From UHGV virus genome UHGV-0106598: 45,497 nucleotides of DNA; one strand, written 5' to 3'. A model generated the notes under the pieces. The model made no database searches, had not been told where the DNA came from, and was given only the letters and a program-made list of their open reading frames with translations. Shown in pieces: positions 1,575 to 18,107 of the stretch (positions within the stretch are counted from its first letter, which is position 1; every line of letters starts with the position of its first letter). This DNA comes from a virus. The translations under genes and the position numbers were made by a program.

Positions 1575-1757
1575 TTATTTCTGATTAGGCGTAATCAGTT
1601 CTGGTGGGGGGAATGCCGATTTCTCCCGCGTGACCTTAATGTTTTCTGGCAGGTGTAGCCCAAGTTCGCAGCGGCTCCGTGCTTCAATAATGCCATTGGT
1701 ACCATCGGCAAGTACCAGGTGAACCGCGTCACCACGCTTTAATGTGAGTTTAAGCAT
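1575..1757 (-). CDS. Hypothetical small protein
   Basis: 60-aa ORF directly downstream of the Gp157-like gene (stop/start adjacent), same strand. Confidence 0.35.
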   Translation of the reverse strand: MLKLTLKRGDAVHLVLADGTNGIIEARSRCELGLHLPENIKVTREKSAFPPPELITPNQK

Positions 1758-2326
1758 TAGCGTACCCTCAGCGAACGTTCGCCGCGTTCCAGATGTGCGC
1801 CTGGTACCGGGTTAAGTAATTCGGCAGGTGGTGTTTCTCCACGCGCCATTATTTCTGCGGCAACCGCCTCCGCAGATTCAATCACTTCTTTAATGGCTCG
1901 CTTGTTTGGTGTAATAACCGTTTCTACTTCAACAAGTGACACGCCTTCATACTCGTCCGGGATCTTATCTTTGCTATCGATAATTACCCGGATAGCCCCC
2001 TGTGCATCAGTAAATGTGTTTTTAGCAGTTTTCAATTTATCCAGGCCAGCAGCTTGCAGGCAGGCGAGCATATGCTTCCGAATTGCTTTTTCCTTGCCTT
2101 CAAAGGACGTCTTACGGGTAGCCAGGCGAGACATTTCTTCAGCGCAGGTACTGGCATTGCCCTGTAAATTGCGGCAGATGACCATCATGGCGTCCAGTTT
2201 GTCTCCCAGTTCTCCTTCCATACCTTCAAGCGTGTCGGCGATCATCTCTGGCGTCAGTTCGTCGGAGGTTTCCAGCAGGTCAATCAGGCTGGCATATTCT
2301 TTTGCAATAGCGATAGCGGTGCTCAT
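1757..2326 (-). CDS. Siphovirus Gp157-like protein
   Basis: 189-aa ORF; overall pattern resembles recalled Gp157-family proteins that accompany phage annealing proteins; start overlaps the upstream gene stop. Confidence 0.55.
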   Translation of the reverse strand: MSTAIAIAKEYASLIDLLETSDELTPEMIADTLEGMEGELGDKLDAMMVICRNLQGNASTCAEEMSRLATRKTSFEGKEKAIRKHMLACLQAAGLDKLKTAKNTFTDAQGAIRVIIDSKDKIPDEYEGVSLVEVETVITPNKRAIKEVIESAEAVAAEIMARGETPPAELLNPVPGAHLERGERSLRVR

Positions 2327-4539
2327 GCGGTTTGCTCCTGTGCAGCGGTGAGGGCGGCGAGGCGTTCAGTTTTGATGTCGGTGATACGGCGCAGGCGCGA
2401 TCCCAGATACGATGAATATTCTTTATCGCCTTTGGCTTCTGCTGCTTTTCGGTGTACATCCACTTCGCGGGCGATGAGGCCAAATACCTTGTTTACTTCG
2501 TTGGTGGTTACCGCGGCGGCCAGCGTATTGGCAACGTTGATCAGCTTCTCATCCAGTTCCTTACGAAGACGGGTAGCATCTTCCGCATTCTCGCTGGCAT
2601 TCTTGATATCAAACTCAGCTTTATTCCTCTGGCGGTATTCCGGATTGTCGTACAGGCCCATGAAAATATCGGCGCTGAATCCGAGAGGGGATAGCGCTTT
2701 CTTAACAGCATCCGTCCAGGATTTCTTCGGCGCTTCGCCGTCGCTTGTTGGTCCATGTTTAGTATCGTAGATGTACGGAGTGCAACCGTAAGCCGCAGAC
2801 TCGCCGCGCACCCCATTCAATATGTACCAGACTCTCACTTTCATGGTGTGGTGCATTTCACATAGGTACCCGCCAACACCGTCGTGAATCAGATCCCATT
2901 CTATTTTTTCACCAACCTGTTTTTTGCGAACTATCGGTGCGCCTTTATCAAAGCGCTCCTCCAGCACCTCTACACCCCAGCCAATACCAAACGGCCCAAA
3001 TTCGCGAGTCGCTTTCATCGCTATATAAGTGCCGTTGATGGATGTGCCGCCGCCATTCTGAGAGAAAGCACTGGTGAAGCGCTCATCGGTTTTGAATACG
3101 TTCTTCCACAATGCCAGATTATCCGTGTCGTCGGAGTCCTTTAACTCCGTTTCGATAGCTGAGATTGCATTCTGCCGCTTGTGCTCTTCGGTATGGATCC
3201 GCTCAACCAGCGCGTCAACGTTCTGCACCAGATCCTTTACCTGCTCGCTAAGTTTTTCTTGTGGAGGAGTCTCTTCTGCCGGGGTAATAGCTGCAGGTTC
3301 CCTCTGTGATACGGCGTTATTTTCAGGTACGTCATACACATGGCGAGGCGTGACAAACTGCTCACGCAACTGCTGCAAACTACGTTCTCCAGCATTTGCT
3401 GCTTCGCTTTTTTCGCCCTGATTTGAGGGTGTTTCTGACATCATCCCATCAATTGAGAATCGTCCGCCGCCGTGGTTGGTGACTTTTACATCATCCTTTG
3501 GTGCTGCTTCCTTTGGCTTCTCTTCAACAGCATTTGCATCACGCTGCCCGTTAGCTTGCAGCCAGTTGTCGATGTGACTGCGCAGGGATTGTGGGAAGTG
3601 GTACGTGTCTTTTGCGGGGGCGCTCTGAATAACACCGAATACTGATGCGCGGTCATAGGCAAGGATCTGATCCGTTGTGCGCAAGGCCATTGACCAGCGT
3701 TTAAAATCTTCCCTGTCCTGACTGATTATTTCGTCTGCCGCTTTCAGGATGCTGGGGGTGATTTTTTCCGGGGCAACAGGTAACAGGGCGCAGGCAATTT
3801 CACGATCCAGTGTGGCGTGAGTCTGTTGGTAAGGACGTGCGGATGCTGTTTGTGGTTTTACCTCCGGCAGCATTTCATCGCGTTTACCGGGATTCTCTAC
3901 CCATTTTTTTATAAATTTGGAGATAGTCCAACTGGTCGGGTTTTGTTCCTGGGTATCGCAACTTGCCAAAATTGCATGTACCAGATTATTCAATCCAGCA
4001 ATATGCATGTACTCAATGGGCTTACACGCTACCATGGCATCGAGGACGATGCGGTTAAACGCGTCAACCTCATCCTCACTGTTAGTATCACTGTTGTCGA
4101 GCATCTCCAGGTATTCACGCGTCTGCGCAAGCAATTCACTGTCGACTTCGTTGGCGTCGTGGCTGAACAGCAGGACGGCGGCGAAGCGTTCACGAGCAGG
4201 CAGTTTCATCAGGTCGTTAACCTGTGCGATATCTGCTGAACCGCTATCTGAATCAGCGGGGGGGTTAACTACCCATTTTTCGCCATCAAAACTGTGTTCT
4301 GTGGCAAACGTCTCATCAAACTCACCGACGCCTGGGCGCGGTTGGCCTGGGGCATCCTCCCAGATTTTAGGTTTGAAATAGTTGTCGCCGTGGTCAGGGT
4401 AGGCTTCCCACAATTTGCCGATGATGATGTTCTCGGCAACTTTTTTGTTAGGGGCGTCGATGGCGATGGCCAGCGCCGGGATCGCACCGTTTTTGAGCGC
4501 GCCTTTTTTCGCTTCTAACAAGCCGTTAAAAATGGTCAT
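2323..4539 (-). CDS. Large recombination protein: about 480-aa N-terminal region of unknown function fused to a C-terminal Rad52-like single-strand annealing domain
   Basis: 738-aa ORF; C-terminal REFGPFGIGWGVEV ... KKSWTDAVKKALSPLGFSADIF ... DNPEY parallels recalled Rad52-family motifs (EMFGYNGW ... TDGLKRAL..FG...DKDY); start preceded by GAGGAAAGACCA-ATG. Confidence 0.6.
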   Translation of the reverse strand: MTIFNGLLEAKKGALKNGAIPALAIAIDAPNKKVAENIIIGKLWEAYPDHGDNYFKPKIWEDAPGQPRPGVGEFDETFATEHSFDGEKWVVNPPADSDSGSADIAQVNDLMKLPARERFAAVLLFSHDANEVDSELLAQTREYLEMLDNSDTNSEDEVDAFNRIVLDAMVACKPIEYMHIAGLNNLVHAILASCDTQEQNPTSWTISKFIKKWVENPGKRDEMLPEVKPQTASARPYQQTHATLDREIACALLPVAPEKITPSILKAADEIISQDREDFKRWSMALRTTDQILAYDRASVFGVIQSAPAKDTYHFPQSLRSHIDNWLQANGQRDANAVEEKPKEAAPKDDVKVTNHGGGRFSIDGMMSETPSNQGEKSEAANAGERSLQQLREQFVTPRHVYDVPENNAVSQREPAAITPAEETPPQEKLSEQVKDLVQNVDALVERIHTEEHKRQNAISAIETELKDSDDTDNLALWKNVFKTDERFTSAFSQNGGGTSINGTYIAMKATREFGPFGIGWGVEVLEERFDKGAPIVRKKQVGEKIEWDLIHDGVGGYLCEMHHTMKVRVWYILNGVRGESAAYGCTPYIYDTKHGPTSDGEAPKKSWTDAVKKALSPLGFSADIFMGLYDNPEYRQRNKAEFDIKNASENAEDATRLRKELDEKLINVANTLAAAVTTNEVNKVFGLIAREVDVHRKAAEAKGDKEYSSYLGSRLRRITDIKTERLAALTAAQEQTA

Positions 4540-4569: not shown

Positions 4570-4899
4570 TTAGTAGGGGATTTCATCGGTATCTGGCGTG
4601 TATTCGATGCAAAGTAACTGCTGGATTTCGTCATCGATAGCAGCAATACGCTGTTGGGCGTCGGCGACTGTTTTCTGTTTTTGTTCACGCAGTTGCTCGA
4701 CCTGTAAACCGATGATGTCGATTGGCTGGGGCTGGTTGACGGTAATTTCAATTTCGCGGCTTTCCAGAAGGATGTACCTGTCTGGAAAACCTTTAGACAT
4801 ATCAACGGTTGCAACTAAGATTTCCCCAGGACAGAAAGTTGAGGTTGGGAATGCATAATTTACATATAGCTTTACGGGGATAGTGGTGCGCGCTTCCAT
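4570..4899 (-). CDS. Hypothetical protein
   Basis: 109-aa ORF with AAGGAG-like ribosome-binding site 6 nt before the ATG; first clear gene of the leftward early operon. Confidence 0.45.
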   Translation of the reverse strand: MEARTTIPVKLYVNYAFPTSTFCPGEILVATVDMSKGFPDRYILLESREIEITVNQPQPIDIIGLQVEQLREQKQKTVADAQQRIAAIDDEIQQLLCIEYTPDTDEIPY

Positions 4900-5129
4900 A
4901 GCGACTCCTTGGTGATGTATACTCGGGACCGATCAGCGAATATTGATCAGCTTCCATAGCGTCAGTGTCGTTGGTCTTTCCTCATCACAAGTTTGGTCAC
5001 TTGTGATAAATCCGAATGGTTTGGTCGCCGTTCGGGGTAACTGGCCCGCCTTGTGCGGGTCTTTTGCTATCTAAAGGGTGCCGGTTACGTTTCCGGCGTC
5101 GTTATGTTTCCATCACGACCGTACGGGGC

Positions 5130-5183
5130 TGGTCTTTCCTGTTTTGAGCTGGTCAGGCTCATGGTCAACGCTGGTCAGGCGTG
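5130..5183 (-). repeat. Degenerate minus-strand copy of the CCACGCCTGACCAGCGT ... AGGAAAGACC cassette, without ATG or ORF
   Basis: Seen in sequence: reverse complement of 5164-5180 is CCACGCCTGACCAGCGT; AGGAAAGACCAGCC follows about 28 nt downstream on the minus strand. Confidence 0.6.
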
Positions 5184-5749
5184 GTACTTCCTCCGGTCTT
5201 TCCCTGGTGTCACGCTGCGGGTTTGGCCTCTCCTGTTGGGGACTCAGGCACAGCGATAAAACCTGGCTGTGTGAAAAAATGGCCCATCGTGCGGACTGGG
5301 CAAAGACTAAACACAGCAAATTGATGATGGGCGCCCGGAATCGAACCGGGTAACGGGCAGGGAGTTCCCGTTAAACACCTGTTCACCACAACCGGGAGCG
5401 CACTCCGCCATTTCAAAATTTAACGACAAAGCTCAAAGTTGAGTCGATGAAGTGCGCTCTCGTGTTGTAGCCAGGACTCTTCCCTGGTGGTCACACCGTA
5501 TCGCCTTGATGGTGAATCAATCGCTCATACCTGGCTGTGGCTTGCACATTCCGGCTACCTGCTATGGAGACAACGCGTTAAGGCTCCGCTTCCATCCAGA
5601 CCGCTTCGACACATGTGCCATATGCCGGCGAAGTCTTTCCCTCTGTCATCGTACTGGCGCCGACGCGCAAAATTTGGTGCCGTCTTTCCGGCTGTCAGAA
5701 CTTGTTTCTGAACAACTGCCGCTGGGTAAGCGTTGTTGATGGAAGTGAC

Positions 5750-5811
5750 TTTACAATTTGTATTTGTAATGGTCAATGTATTTTTAAAAAATAATTTGTA
5801 GTTAGGGGCAA
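5750..5811. promoter_or_regulatory. OL-like operator/promoter region with repeated TTTGTA motifs
   Basis: Seen in sequence: AATTTGTATTTGTAATGG and ATAATTTGTAGTTA on the far side of the repressor gene, mirroring the motifs in the cI/cro intergenic region. Confidence 0.45.
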
Positions 5812-5895
5812 AAAAATATTCACTGTGTAAAGGTGTTTTTGTGTTAGGGGGAAAGTTGCATGCCAGCAGCGGCTGGCCTGGAAATTTGAACTGAA

Positions 5896-12903: not shown

Positions 12904-13599
12904 ATGTTAGAACCGCCAAAGAATTATAATGAAATGTTACCCATGCTCCATAAGGCAACTTTTATTACTACATTTATATTTTACCTATCATTGGTTATTT
13001 ATGGCTACATACCATTGGTTGGCATTAATGCCAAGTACATTCCACCAATCAAAGACTACGAAGAATTTATTAAGTGGATATTAACATTCGGCATATTACC
13101 AATTGCATTCTCAATTTTTTGGTCTGTGATTAGTGGGGCTTTAGATCTACATAATAACGTGGCAAAAATTCTTGGAATAAGAAAAGCATGGGATAATTAC
13201 TTGATTGTTAAACCATTGGCGCAAGTTGCAGGCATTACAAGAAAATTAACTAGTGATGAATCCTCCAAAGTAATGAACAAACTGTATTACCCAGAAGTTA
13301 ATGAGTTAAAAGATAAACATTATGTTGAGCTCTTCTGGAATAAGGTTTATTACTTTTGGGTTTTCTTTGAACATACTGTGATTGCATTTATTACTGTTTT
13401 AGTAATAAGTTTTGCTAAAATAACCCATTTACTCTCTGTAACCGGTTCTTTAAAAAATCTTTGGTTGTGGGTTATTTTTATTGTTGTCTTTAATTTTCTT
13501 ATTTTTATTGCATCCGTTAAACCCAGAACTGAAGGCCAAGTCAGACAAATACCTGATGATAAGATAAAGGAATTTTTTAATAATAACAGTATTTTTTAA
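12904..13599 (+). CDS. Integral membrane protein (about 4 predicted transmembrane helices), unknown function
   Basis: GGAGAG ribosome-binding site before the ATG at 12904 (track ORF starts at an upstream non-ATG codon); four long hydrophobic segments; AT-rich codon usage; stop adjacent to the next gene's ATG. Confidence 0.5.
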   Translation: MLEPPKNYNEMLPMLHKATFITTFIFYLSLVIYGYIPLVGINAKYIPPIKDYEEFIKWILTFGILPIAFSIFWSVISGALDLHNNVAKILGIRKAWDNYLIVKPLAQVAGITRKLTSDESSKVMNKLYYPEVNELKDKHYVELFWNKVYYFWVFFEHTVIAFITVLVISFAKITHLLSVTGSLKNLWLWVIFIVVFNFLIFIASVKPRTEGQVRQIPDDKIKEFFNNNSIF

Positions 13600-14265
13600 A
13601 TGAGGTTAGTTTTGAATTACAAAATAAATGGAATGACTATACGTTCAGAAAATGCAGCAAAACCGCATACTATGCCATCTAACTATCTCTGTAACCATAT
13701 TGAAAATTCTGTTAAAAATGGCATGGCCCTTGATTTCGGATGTGGAAAGCTTAGATATTCAGAACAATTAGTAAATAAATTTGAAGCTGTGACATTTTTA
13801 GATTCCAGAAAACAGTTAGAAAGAGTGCAAATTATCAGAGGCGTACAAACCACAATTCCAGAGTATGTGGCTAATAATTATAAAAATGCTAATGTTGTCC
13901 CTTTTGAAAGTATAGATAAAATAAAAGATAATTATGATTTCATACTTTGCGCAAACGTGCTTTCCGCAATTCCATGCAAATCAACAATTTACAAAATCAT
14001 CAATGAGATTGGGAGATTATTAAAAAATGATGGTGAAGCAATTATTGTTAATCAATACAAAAGCTCTTATTTCAAAAAGTATGAGACTGGAATTAAACAT
14101 TTGCATGGATATATATACCAAAACTCTCGCAATGCTTTCTATTATGGCTTATTGGATGAGAATATTGTAAGTAAAATTTGCTTAGATAACAATTTAGCAG
14201 TAATAAAGTCATGGAGCAAAGCTGGCAGTTCATATGTGGTTGTTGGTAAAAATAAACATAATTAG
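13600..14265 (+). CDS. Class I SAM-dependent methyltransferase-like protein (small-molecule/RNA/protein type, not a typical DNA methyltransferase)
   Basis: Motif I LDFGCGKL, acidic residue about 17 aa later (FLDS), motif DFILCANVLSAIP; no DPPY/NPPY-type DNA methyltransferase motif seen. Confidence 0.5.
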   Translation: MRLVLNYKINGMTIRSENAAKPHTMPSNYLCNHIENSVKNGMALDFGCGKLRYSEQLVNKFEAVTFLDSRKQLERVQIIRGVQTTIPEYVANNYKNANVVPFESIDKIKDNYDFILCANVLSAIPCKSTIYKIINEIGRLLKNDGEAIIVNQYKSSYFKKYETGIKHLHGYIYQNSRNAFYYGLLDENIVSKICLDNNLAVIKSWSKAGSSYVVVGKNKHN

Positions 14266-14592
14266 TAAATTTAAAAATAATATTAGAGGGTGCCATTTTC
14301 TTATTACTTATTAACTCGCTGGGGTAGGGGCAACACGCCCCACCTCATCAAGTTACTGCAGGATTATAGACTTTTGTCAAAACGTTGGAAAAATTCAGTA
14401 CAAACTTTTCCATGTTTTTCCTAATCATAGATAATGATGCTCACTTATGTTAACAACTTCTTGTACATAACGGTCTTCTTCAACAGGACAGCTATAAGTG
14501 AAGAAATAAAGTCGATAAACAATAAAGAGGCTCCAAATAAATATTATTCAATGAAGCCTGCTGTTTATTATTTGTTATTATTAAATCGCTAC

Positions 14593-15492
14593 TTATAATT
14601 CAACAATTTTTAGTATTATATCAATATTATTTAGCCTTGCAATCTCTGATGAATCGTTTGCAATTTTATCTTTTAAATTATCAATGTTAATCATATCTTC
14701 AGAGCTAATACAAACCATATCACCTTGGTTAACTTTTGATTTGTTCACTATGGCTTGAATAACAGACAGATCGTCCATTACACCTCTCAGGAATTTAACC
14801 ATGCTTTGATCCTTGAAATCAGATATCGATTTTGAACGTTGCTTACGTTGGATTGTTCCTTTTGTAATTATTTCGTTAATTTCTTTTAAACCGGCAAGCA
14901 TATCAGATATGCTTCCTTCGCAACTCATCCTGTGTTTAATAGCATTGCGATTAATAACATTGAGTATTATTTCGAGTGAATCTCTATCATCCCATGGCGA
15001 TAATAATGTATAATCCTGATGGCGATGAATGGCATCAAGCATATCAAGGATCATATTTTCATCTGCTTTATCGCAAAGTTCATTTACAAAATAGCTGGGG
15101 TCGATTACTTTACAATAACTTGGAACTGAGCATTTTGAGCTTTTACAAAACCCAAAAATATATAAAAAAGGGTATATGTCTTTTAGACTCTTTCCTGATT
15201 TATTTTCTTTTTCAAAGGCTGCGATTGTTTTTTTAATTTTTGCCGGGGTTGCTTTCGTTGTAACTTGAACTGCTATCATGTTTTTATTGTCAGCTAAATC
15301 AATGGCGGGAAAGTTAACTTTAATCTGATTCATGTTTTCCAGTCCCCCCATTTTCAGTGCGCGAAACATATAAATGGTCAATGACTCAATCATTCTTTCC
15401 ATGTCATGAAAGCCAGTCTGTTTGCGTTGTTCGATATAAAGCTGAAGTAGCGCAATATCTTTCTGTAAGTTACTAATAACTGGGGCAATCAT
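14593..15492 (-). CDS. Hypothetical protein with an Rx4H (HEPN-like) motif; candidate abortive-infection-type RNase
   Basis: 299-aa ORF with AAGGA ribosome-binding site; RNAIKH at residues 182-187; N-terminal NFPAIDLADNKNMIAVQVTT region resembles what I recall of SMEK-type N-terminal domains (tentative). Confidence 0.45.
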   Translation of the reverse strand: MIAPVISNLQKDIALLQLYIEQRKQTGFHDMERMIESLTIYMFRALKMGGLENMNQIKVNFPAIDLADNKNMIAVQVTTKATPAKIKKTIAAFEKENKSGKSLKDIYPFLYIFGFCKSSKCSVPSYCKVIDPSYFVNELCDKADENMILDMLDAIHRHQDYTLLSPWDDRDSLEIILNVINRNAIKHRMSCEGSISDMLAGLKEINEIITKGTIQRKQRSKSISDFKDQSMVKFLRGVMDDLSVIQAIVNKSKVNQGDMVCISSEDMINIDNLKDKIANDSSEIARLNNIDIILKIVEL

Positions 15493-16025
15493 AGCTAATA
15501 ATCCTTTTCAATTAAGTAGGGGATGTGTTTGAGCTTCTTTATTTGACTGTTAGTTTAATTTCTTGTTTTCATATTAACAAGCTCTACAATTTTATCAAGA
15601 TTTCTCAAAAACTAATCCTCCGTGTAAATCCACTAACTATGCTGAATTTATTCCGCTGTAAAACATGTCCGCTCATGGCTGTGAGTTCAACGGGTCGATG
15701 CAACGCCATCCACTCAGTAAAATTGTGTAATTCCAGTGAGCAGGCGAATCTTCAGTATGCTCTAGTTTCTTACTCACACCTGCTTATGCTTTAACTAGGT
15801 ACAATGTAGATAAACTCTCATGTTGATTTATCGCCATGATCACATTTCCGGAAGAAAAATTTTGTTTGTAACCTTGCTAGATGAGACAGTATAGATATCA
15901 TTACATATGAAACAGTACATTAGGGAACACTGAAGGCCGTAACTTTAAAAAATATAATTAATTGTACATAATTTTATAACAATCAAGATGGTGGCAATTA
16001 TATAAGTAATAATAAGGGGTGATTA

Positions 16026-17378
16026 ATGATTAAATTCACAGAAAAGGAAATACAAAATTACATATGGGAAAATAGGAACAATTTTCCCGAACTGCTTATT
16101 GAACCTGCAGGTCTTGAAGTACTTGAATTCAACGAAGATCTCTCTGATGTAACAGCACAACTGCTAATAAAAAACAGAATAAATAGTAAACTATCCAATC
16201 TTCACTCTAAGCTTTATGGACTGGAATTTATCGGCTGCGAAGTTCCTTTAGAACAAAATTCAAACTCAACAATTAGAGCCGATTTTTTGGCTATATTCTG
16301 TGATGATACTGGGCTTGCTGTCATAGAGCTTAAAAAAAGTGAACAAACTGAAAGGCAAGCATTCACTGAATTGTTAGCATATTCAAACCATATGACAACA
16401 TTATTTCCATCCATGACGAAAAATGACAGTGTGTATATTTTAATATCACCAATGGAAACCAGAATAGCACGTGATGCTGTCATCCAAAGTTTAATATTTG
16501 ACAATAGGGATATCATTGCTTTAATTCCAACATTCTCTGATCCTCTTGATATTACCTCTCTTAAACTTGAATTATGGATTCCAGACCAAACAGAGTTAGC
16601 GACTTTCTCAAATATTGCATTTAGAGAAGATAATTTTAGTGTCTGTAAATTATCCTGGGAGTATGACGCAGAGCGATGGGATGCAGCTAGAGGAGAAGAA
16701 CTTTTACATTCATTTGTTAGTCAATTTGATAACATTTCCTGCCTTGCAGCTCAGTATATGGAAGAATCTGGAGTTCATGGTTTTACTTATTGCTCTCAGT
16801 TATGGCCTGAATTATCTCAGGCATTACCTTTTACGAATTCATTAGTACTAGTTGGCATGAATCCTTATGCTGTCGGGAGTGTCCAGCATTTATCCACAGA
16901 AGACGACAACTATGATGATATTCCAGACCCAAATTCTTACACTCCTCACATATCTGAATTAATTGGTAAACTAGGTGAAGGAGAACTATATGAGGCTAAT
17001 ATTGATGTCCTAAGTGGTTTACATTGTACATGGATCTCTCAATTATATCGTATAGGTAAGCAGGTAATTGAACTCACCACTAGAAATACAGATGGGAAAT
17101 ACGTCCACGTTGAATATGGCTTTATGAATTGGGAAATCTATCAAAGGTCTCTACTTGAGGATGTTTTCTGTAATAACTTCGCTATTAGGTCTACAGGTTT
17201 AATACGACATCTCTATACTGACATTCTTAAATTAGATTATGATTTTTGTAAGAATAACGGATTGGAAAACCACCCTCTTCATGGAGACATGCCATACTTA
17301 GGCGTCAATTTCCTTAAATCCCACCAGCACTTTAGAAAATTTATTTTGCGAATGTTCTATGCCGAAATAGATGCGTAG
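16026..17378 (+). CDS. Hypothetical protein with N-terminal PD-(D/E)xK-like nuclease motif and about 340-aa C-terminal region of unknown function
   Basis: 450-aa ORF with AAGGGGTGA ribosome-binding site; E72 ... D86 ... E101-L-K103 in IRADFLAIFCDDTGLAVIELKK fits the restriction-endonuclease-like fold motif. Confidence 0.4.
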   Translation: MIKFTEKEIQNYIWENRNNFPELLIEPAGLEVLEFNEDLSDVTAQLLIKNRINSKLSNLHSKLYGLEFIGCEVPLEQNSNSTIRADFLAIFCDDTGLAVIELKKSEQTERQAFTELLAYSNHMTTLFPSMTKNDSVYILISPMETRIARDAVIQSLIFDNRDIIALIPTFSDPLDITSLKLELWIPDQTELATFSNIAFREDNFSVCKLSWEYDAERWDAARGEELLHSFVSQFDNISCLAAQYMEESGVHGFTYCSQLWPELSQALPFTNSLVLVGMNPYAVGSVQHLSTEDDNYDDIPDPNSYTPHISELIGKLGEGELYEANIDVLSGLHCTWISQLYRIGKQVIELTTRNTDGKYVHVEYGFMNWEIYQRSLLEDVFCNNFAIRSTGLIRHLYTDILKLDYDFCKNNGLENHPLHGDMPYLGVNFLKSHQHFRKFILRMFYAEIDA

Positions 17379-18107
17379 TGAGATTTTTTAATTTATCTCT
17401 GCTGGAGAAAATTCATGGGTGAGGAAAGAGATAGATAATATTGAAAATAAAATCTTCAAAAGATGTGGAAATAAAAACATGATCTAAATTTTTTTGGCAT
17501 TCATTTCATATGAAACAGTCCTTCTAAAAAACTATACAGGCATGGATGATATTTTTTATGATTTTTTAGTTGTAATTTATCTTTACTATATAATATATGG
17601 GGGGATTGTCGCCAGCTATTCACCGACTATCAAATATCAATAACTCCTGGCTGTTCTGTAAGGTATAGACATACAAATCGGCCTGAAGATTACGGATAGT
17701 TTCTTAAGGTCCGTTCCTGGCACAAAGTGGACTGTCAAATTAAATTCGGCTCCACGCCATAGATGTGTCAGCTCATATCTTATCTAATACACACAATAAT
17801 TCTCTCATTCTTAGAGAATTATTCTTTTTAGGCTAGATGTTGACGTTAGAACAAAAGAATAGATATTTTTGATATTTATTACATTGGAGCTAAAGTACCG
17901 CCCATGTACAACTGGAGCGTTTGCTGATGGTATCGCATTATCTTGCAGAGGACGCACGCAGGTTAAATAAAACAAGCATATGTGCCTGGTTTTTGTAATA
18001 TTGGGTATAACATATGCTTTATAGGGGCGAGCTCAATGACCAACCGAGAAAGAATCTCCTGCCAGATACAGTTATTTTCACCCTCTCCATAACATAAGGG
18101 AGTTTTT

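Follow-up and report, generated by a model that had tools for sequence, protein, structure and literature searches.

Phage single-strand annealing proteins (SSAPs) such as Sak, Red-beta, Erf and RecT bind single-stranded DNA (ssDNA), oligomerize and anneal complementary strands. In the two-component SynExo systems, lambda Exo and Beta or RecE and RecT, the gene for the cognate exonuclease is adjacent to that for the annealase. RecE of the Rac prophage (866 amino acids, aa), a PD-(D/E)XK 5'-3' exonuclease which works with a separate RecT, begins with 178 aa of PF06630 and carries its nuclease domain (PF12684; PDB 3H4R, PMC11611040) at residues 615-850. The function of the RecE N-terminal domain is unknown, and full-length RecE improves linear-linear recombination (PMC11611040). 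In this study, we analyzed a gene for a 738-aa protein in UHGV virus genome UHGV-0106598, a stretch of 45,497 nucleotides which at its full length is called the window below. The protein shares with Rac RecE its general plan, in which a sizeable N-terminal region is followed by a long acidic linker and then by the C-terminal effector, and its gene occupies the same early-left operon slot. Unlike RecE, however, its effector appears to be an annealase itself, and neither a nuclease nor recT is present. We consider it probable that the 738-aa protein is a modular recombination protein, in which an accessory N-terminal module (N-module) of the RecE/YdfE type is connected by a flexible linker to a Rad52/Sak-type annealase.

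The gene (2323..4539, minus strand, as are all its parts given below; 738 aa plus stop) is a genuine single gene in the early-left operon of a lambdoid Escherichia coli prophage, between the cI-like repressor gene and xis/int. In the list of open reading frames (ORFs) it is one intact ORF of 738 codons. AGGAAA, a good ribosome-binding site, lies six bases 5' of its ATG (4539), and PHROG 2489 matches the protein over its full length. The local order is int, DUF4224 excisionase, a 60-aa ORF, a Gp157-like gene, the 738-aa gene and a 109-aa ORF, followed by ~1 kb without genes and then by the cI-like repressor, cro-like, YdaT, RepO and DnaB genes. The domain layout was derived with AlphaFold2 models of aa 1-430 (37 sequences, predicted local distance difference test (pLDDT) 80) and aa 430-738 (26 sequences, pLDDT 78).

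The C-terminal half as a putative annealase

A preliminary description of this DNA had assigned Rad52-type motifs to the C-terminal 230 aa. The motifs, 'GGGTSINGTY...FGPFGIGWG' at aa 496-522 and 'KKSWTDAVKKALSPLGF...YDNPEY' at aa 605-635, are borne out, but the domain is smaller than supposed: a putative Rad52/Sak-type single-strand annealing core of alpha/beta type and ~170 aa (aa 471-640; 2620..3129) is flanked by a long helix (aa 431-470; 3130..3249; AlphaFold2 helix 2-39, pLDDT ~90) and by a helical tail of ~100 aa (aa 641-738; 2326..2619), which consists of three long helices with pLDDT >90. When a profile of 94 sequences was aligned by hhalign with the single sequence of human RAD52 1-211 (checked against PDB 1KN0), 129 collinear columns covered RAD52 residues 47-176, corresponding to the whole annealing core (probability 70.7%, P 3.8e-5). 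Rad52_Rad22 was the sole recurrent Pfam family when C-terminal relatives were scanned singly, being found at E<1 in 25 of 26 relatives (best 4.6e-5) and at E<0.01 in 18 of 94 (best 3e-6). RAD52 chains also made up three of the five PDB sequence matches of the 94-sequence profile. In the AlphaFold2 model, the core runs from a hairpin and a helix through three long strands, among which one additional hairpin is inserted, to a further helix, an element order that agrees with the SSAP core described in PMC11611040. Moreover, K613/K614, which are invariant or nearly so in the family, align with K152/R153 of RAD52, which like R55 and R156 lie in the inner groove that binds ssDNA.

Thus, compared with Sak-type SSAPs (Lactococcus phage ul36 Sak; PF04098) and human RAD52 (PDB 1KN0, 5XRZ), the C-terminal half is collinear across the annealing core, has the same predicted order of secondary-structure elements and keeps the basic pair, and like the genes of Sak-type SSAPs the 738-aa gene sits in a phage recombination module. 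Unlike them, it has an extra beta-hairpin insertion (aa ~537-550), the conserved 100-aa helical tail and, uniquely, a 470-aa N-terminal extension; it falls below the Pfam threshold, and its gene has no partner exonuclease gene.

Standalone homologues of 240-300 aa, which begin at ~aa 470 of the window protein and from which the helix at aa 431-470 is absent, are abundant in phages and prophages of Pseudomonas, Vibrio, Sulfitobacter and Pelagibacter. A few of them were named 'Rad52/Rad22 family DNA repair protein', 'RAD52-like annealing protein' or 'putative single strand-annealing protein' by their depositors, and others 'exonuclease'. In Pseudomonas phage H66, the standalone homologue is encoded in a block together with a single-stranded DNA-binding protein (SSB), a 3'-5' exonuclease and an RdgC-family protein, and its depositor refers to Rad52_Rad22 in a note. 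Judged from remote profile matches, the predicted element order and the genomic context, aa ~471-640 are most likely a divergent Rad52/Sak-type annealase.

Several points weigh against this interpretation. The Rad52 assignment consists of remote, sub-threshold sequence signals: the C-terminal fragment of the window protein scores 13.6 bits with Pfam PF04098 Rad52_Rad22 (E 0.065; cut-off 20.3), the full-length protein gives no Pfam match to this family at E<=1, and the RAD52 chains found with the 94-sequence profile in PDB sequences are at a non-significant E of ~1.6. Nothing was found in PDB sequences by phmmer or profile search when the full protein or a shallower profile served as query, and fold searches did not retrieve Rad52, the assignment being unconfirmed by fold comparison. 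R55, Y65 and R156 of RAD52 are not conserved, the positions aligned with R55 and R156 being non-basic. For none of the fused proteins did we find biochemical data. As regards possible partners, that of the N-module is hypothetical, and 'Mu Gam-like', as the downstream Gp157-like protein is labelled, is only a PHROG label, Pfam Phage_Mu_Gam having no match to this protein.

Alternatively, the Rad52-like fold may be used elsewhere, in replication initiation or restart or in the triggering or evasion of host defence, with the N-module being the functionally dominant part. The divergence of the family from characterized SSAPs, the loss of several RAD52 DNA-binding residues, the lack of a cognate exonuclease and the occurrence of the N-module also with a domain not suggestive of recombination would all fit such a role. 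However, the gene occupies the canonical Rec-module slot of lambdoid early-left operons, standalone homologues are found beside SSB, exonuclease and RdgC genes, and the basic pair in the DNA-binding helix is conserved. The missing nuclease is not unusual either, because 84 of 246 lambdoid Rec modules have none according to a recent survey (Zheng et al. 2025, Genome Res 35:1767, PMC12315714). We therefore regard a non-annealing function as unlikely and an annealase as the better reading of the C-terminal half.

The tail is 62% identical in Pectobacterium phage ZF40, versus 31% for the N-module and 46% for the core, and is the most conserved segment there. It is also kept unchanged in a relative with a swapped core (P0014, see below), and is a candidate partner-binding region.

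The linker

The linker (aa 336-430; 3250..3534) starts with a conserved beta-hairpin motif, VKVTNHGGGRFSIDGMMSETPSNQGEK, with strands predicted at 353-363, and continues as a disordered acidic stretch with pLDDT <50 across 366-430. In hhalign the hairpin aligns with 'PEIVDIACGRSSA' of RecE. Among orthologues, the linker differs in length and sequence but is always in frame, and linkers gain or lose short conserved motifs. Of the ~480 extra N-terminal residues with acidic linkers described previously, the existence of a large additional region stands, but what precedes the helix and core is 335 folded residues and a single acidic, largely disordered linker of ~95 aa.

Two linker motifs recur in related proteins, as seen in Rac recE (L005, aa ~455-480 and ~515-540), Tritos (L004), P0283 and P0024. 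LLAAxRGE[FY]VxGISDPNDPKWVK occurs in the linker of RecE as well as in those of the Tritos-type exonuclease and of some annealase fusions from Salmonella, and a zinc-ribbon-like CxxCGQTGGxNCPDCG motif is common to RecE and Tritos; the window protein has neither. These motifs look like optional docking motifs.

The linker is also where an internal translation start, as considered in the preliminary description, might give a second product. In this scenario, a shorter standalone annealase would be made besides the full-length protein, and only some molecules would carry the N-module. In-frame TTG388 and GTG438 are indeed preceded by weak Shine-Dalgarno (SD)-like sequences (-6.4 and -6.1 kcal/mol), and the standalone homologues start at ~aa 470. 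However, codons 368-502 contain no ATG, combinations of SD and start codon that are just as strong arise fortuitously within the core, at codons 525 and 562, and no candidate is conserved at an equivalent position in the Salmonella, L009 and BUCT708 genes. Two products from this gene are thus improbable.

The N-terminal RecE/YdfE-type module

The N-module is predicted with confidence to consist of three subdomains: subdomain A (aa 1-95; 4255..4539), small and of alpha/beta type, which is the first part of YdfE_N; subdomain B (aa 111-225; 3865..4209), its second part, acidic (isoelectric point (pI) 4.65) and composed of six helices in the AlphaFold2 model; and subdomain C (aa 240-335; 3535..3822), five helices with pLDDT >90 common to Rac RecE aa ~259-345. 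The N-terminal 335 aa have a pI of 4.9 and a net charge of -18, and the annealing core is neutral. Every full-length relative has PF27430 (YdfE_N) as its precomputed Pfam family, and this family was assigned to the window protein via its 97%-identical cluster representative P0001 and the full-length relatives; the Pfam scan of the N-terminal part of the window protein itself was empty because this model is not in the Pfam copy scanned.

In profile comparison, the N-terminal region matched TRITO_27 of Escherichia phage Tritos, an 823-aa 'exonuclease VIII', over aa 1-344 of the latter with an hhalign probability of 100% and E 1e-44. This YdfE/Tritos type, found in Qin-like prophages, is homologous to the whole N-module (aa 1-336) including YdfE_N. 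It differs in its effector, a C-terminal DnaQ-like 3'-5' exonuclease (PF16473), and in a linker with LLAAxRGEFVxGISDPNDPKWVK and CxxC...CxxC, which are absent from the window protein. YdfE of E. coli K-12 appears, judging from the K-12 map, to be a truncated N-terminus of such a Tritos-type protein, because the Tritos gene follows dicB-ydfD. The homology to Rac RecE is limited to window aa 181-363 versus RecE 181-372 (hhalign probability 98%, E 1.3e-13), that is, to the middle helical domain and the hairpin, the PF06630 domain at the start of RecE being a different family. The NCBIfam exodeoxyribonuclease VIII model NF007259 likewise matches only aa 231-336 of the window protein (positions 260-370, E 9e-13), with 47 bits against a cut-off of 1269.

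Public annotation of the 738-aa family is inconsistent and probably wrong. RefSeq names for the gene include 'hypothetical protein', 'exonuclease family protein' and 'phage-associated endonuclease', 'exonuclease VIII-like' is also in use, and one Yersinia relative is named 'transcription termination factor'. The 'exonuclease' labels appear to have been transferred from the N-terminus of RecE. That the protein is a nuclease, as these RefSeq and GenBank names, the exonuclease labels of PHROG 2489 and 7838 and the partial exodeoxyribonuclease VIII homology would have it, is very improbable. The RecE homology covers only a non-catalytic region, the PD-(D/E)XK domain lying at 615-850; no nuclease family, PF12684 included, matched the window protein in Pfam or NCBIfam at E<=1; neither a nuclease fold nor a solved relative was found with the N-module model; and the C-terminal domain matches Rad52_Rad22. 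In addition, 'RecE-2' proteins are said in PMC12315714 to be RecE-related, without a nuclease domain and of unknown role, although that text does not allow 'RecE-2' to be equated with the present family by accession.

Thus, the N-terminal ~335 aa are, on sequence and profile evidence, a non-nuclease RecE/YdfE-type module. The fused exonuclease partner envisaged in the preliminary description finds no counterpart, and the module is not a novel domain as had been proposed there, but is homologous to the non-nuclease region of the RecE family and already catalogued. The domain is catalogued and the fusion common, but a literature search for PF27430, YdfE and Gp157/Gam yielded no functional data, no mention of PF27430 and no function for YdfE.

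Shuffling of N-modules and effectors

The N-module is not confined to annealases. YdfE_N with the middle domain is joined to the Rad52-like annealase in the window gene, to a DnaQ-like exonuclease in Tritos and E. ruysiae (L018), to a PD-(D/E)XK nuclease in a 987-aa protein of a proteobacterial metagenome-assembled genome (L020), and to an uncharacterized module of ~180 aa (phrog_26058) in L098-L100. The latter proteins, from IMG/VR contigs, are of 584-615 aa, and their C-terminal module, a fourth kind of effector, has no Pfam match. Conversely, PF06630 with the middle domain is joined to the PD-(D/E)XK nuclease in Rac RecE and to the same Rad52-like annealase plus tail in P0283 and P0287. Rearrangement is also seen within the annealase fusions. 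In four relatives of 804-844 aa (P0006, P0012, P0013 and P0014), subdomain B is duplicated in tandem, the additional copy standing between B and C, and P0014 also has a different annealing core (44-47% identity), while its N-module and tail closely resemble those of its nearest relatives. The core swap and the duplication of subdomain B are evidence of recombination at domain borders.

Because N-modules and effectors of four kinds shuffle freely, it is suggested that the N-terminal region is a portable, effector-independent accessory module on a flexible tether. A more far-reaching idea, which we consider possible but doubtful, is that the N-module is a general delivery module docking whichever effector it carries onto one common partner. 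Such a partner could be a DNA end that is occupied by the Gp157/Gam-like protein encoded alongside, or a component of the host replisome or SSB. If this idea were true, it would account for the boost to linear-linear recombination that full-length RecE gives and its nuclease domain by itself does not, and the fusion of N-module and annealase would be a nuclease-free, single-polypeptide recombineering tool.

Distribution and integrity of the gene

The 738-aa gene is present in 457 of 5426 complete E. coli genomes (about 8%), ST131 strains included, and in 439 of the 457 it is intact, with a gene coverage of >=80% at 95-100% identity. Copies of 100% identity are found in E. coli A42, ECO20 and EC28, whose chromosomal segments equal the first 9 kb of the window at 100% identity; in ECO20, the matching segment begins 15 bases past the leuZ tRNA-Leu gene, downstream of uvrC-pgsA. 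Full-length relatives are of 709-844 aa. They include Salmonella members at 31-75% identity, some single clusters of which are on at least 1000 contigs, further members in Klebsiella, Citrobacter, Raoultella, Rahnella and Escherichia whittamii, two Stenotrophomonas phages at 53% identity, and gp07 of the cultivable Pectobacterium phage ZF40 at 35% identity. An exhaustive HMMER search of 1.84 billion cluster representatives returned 2552 relatives, among which ~25 clusters (50% identity level) show the full-length architecture (670-815 aa), and the others are mostly standalone proteins of 240-300 aa matching only aa ~472-700. Among the 80 best IMG/VR loci, fetched with the N-terminal profile, 74 have a complete ORF with all four parts. 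A homologue search with the N-terminus alone returned mostly truncated fragments.

The halves do exist apart, as standalone annealases and as truncated YdfE-like fragments. Even so, an artefactual origin of the long ORF, through a frameshift in sequencing or a recent deletion by which a RecE-like remnant and a separate annealase gene became joined, can be dismissed with near certainty because the same continuous frame recurs in the 439 E. coli genomes, in the 74 of 80 IMG/VR loci and in homologues of 31-75% identity from Salmonella, Raoultella, Rahnella, ZF40 and BUCT708, across a linker variable in sequence. Several E. coli strains (NZ_CP184062.1, NZ_CM149870.1 and others) carry the gene with an insertion of ISEc52, a member of the IS3 family, and thus some prophage copies are decaying.

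Neighbouring genes and prophage setting

Directly downstream of the 738-aa gene, as the preliminary description noted, lies a gene for a 189-aa Gp157-like protein (1757..2326, minus strand; Pfam Sipho_Gp157, E 3.5e-28). Its ATG overlaps the stop codon of the 738-aa gene as ATGA (GCATGAGC), with an internal GGAG 11 bases upstream, an arrangement which by its sequence is typical of translational coupling. The Gp157-like gene belongs to PHROG 253, labelled 'Mu Gam-like end protection', and nothing was found for its protein in PDB sequences. It is always followed by the 60-aa ORF (1575..1757, minus strand; PHROG 2482), and these two form a conserved trio with the fusion gene in Salmonella, L009, BUCT708 and ZF40. 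The Gp157 homologue of ZF40 is 50% identical, and the 60-aa ORF is 43-78% identical in these four, ZF40 gp05 being at 43%. The 60-aa ORF also has a weak CsrA-like Pfam match (E 0.1, aa 1-45 versus 1-45 of 53), and the early region of Pseudomonas phage H66 contains a CsrA-domain gene too. Directly upstream of the 738-aa gene, the 109-aa ORF (4570..4899, minus strand; PHROG 2479, function unknown) is 41-66% identical in Salmonella, L009 and BUCT708 but not recognizable in ZF40. Family searches of the genes next to the annealase gene (109-aa ORF, Gp157-like gene, 60-aa ORF, xis and int) found no nuclease gene, and none was found in the Salmonella, L009, BUCT708 and ZF40 modules. In this respect the module differs from SynExo pairs. 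Chi sites, enrichment of which would be a sign of RecBCD-dependent growth, are at chance expectation, with one site in the 45-kb window.

Two other regions of the prophage deserve mention. The ~1 kb that separates the cI-like repressor gene from the first gene of the early-left operon (4900-5895) has no RefSeq gene and no convincing ORF, and related prophages have a gap of 0.3-0.7 kb at the same place. Within it, 5272-5382 (minus strand) is a full-length match to Rfam RF00034 (RprA) of 37.4 bits (E 0.011 on 1 kb), below the gathering score of 70. Its 3' 47 nucleotides, comprising a terminator hairpin and U-run, are ~85% identical to K-12 rprA, the 5' part is unrelated, and the direction of transcription is that of the early-left operon. 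The element may be a prophage-borne RprA-like small RNA or a mimic thereof. Further on, a low-GC island at ~13000-18000 (31-35% versus ~50% elsewhere) inside the prophage contains a S-adenosylmethionine (SAM)-methyltransferase-like ORF (13600-14265), an SMEK_N-domain ORF (14593-15492, minus strand) and a 450-aa ORF (16026-17378) without a Pfam match, and looks like a moron or defence-type cargo region.

Proposed role of the 738-aa protein

By analogy with Sak, Red-beta, Erf and RecT, the C-terminal half of the 738-aa protein would bind ssDNA, oligomerize and anneal complementary strands, and in the simplest scenario the protein would act as the single-strand annealing recombinase of the phage after prophage induction. 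Since the module has no nuclease gene, host nucleases would have to make the ssDNA, or it might be supplied at replication forks. The tail may contact the Gp157-like partner, being the likeliest contact because it is the best conserved part and the Gp157-like gene is an obligate neighbour; the C-terminal region of Red-beta binds Exo and SSB (PMC11611040). The acidic N-module, in turn, may tether the annealase to a partner also used by the RecE-type and DnaQ-type exonucleases of related prophages, and this partner is more likely a protein than DNA because of the net charge of -18.

With regard to previous surveys, Table 1 of PMC12315714 scores ZF40 as positive for anti-RecBCD and negative for SSB, nuclease and SAP. 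The ZF40-type Rec module is thus scored as being without an annealing protein, whereas here its gp07 is found to be a homologue of the 738-aa protein with the Rad52-like C-terminal half. Apparently, the annealing domain of ZF40 was missed there. Such fusions are not mentioned in Lopes et al. 2010 (PMC2896510), and we found no paper describing a YdfE_N module fused to an annealase. What is new here is the combination, in a phage protein, of a probable annealase of the Rad52 type with a shuffled accessory module of the RecE type, the N-module being already catalogued and the fusion common.

The gene is carried by about 8% of complete E. coli genomes and by a very large number of Salmonella genomes, and most likely encodes the strand-annealing recombinase of its prophage. 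Its identification as an annealase bears on estimates of how many prophages are able to drive relaxed, RecA-independent recombination and mosaicism, and fills an apparent 'no annealing protein' gap in one class of Rec modules, the ZF40 type. The N-terminal part of RecE, of ~600 aa, has posed a question of function since the 1990s, though it improves linear-linear recombineering. The shuffling of the module among at least four C-terminal domains, three of which are DNA-end-processing or annealing, argues for an effector-independent role. The natural N-module fusions are constructs with which the function of the RecE N-terminus can be probed, and the fusion of N-module and annealase may provide a compact recombineering protein.

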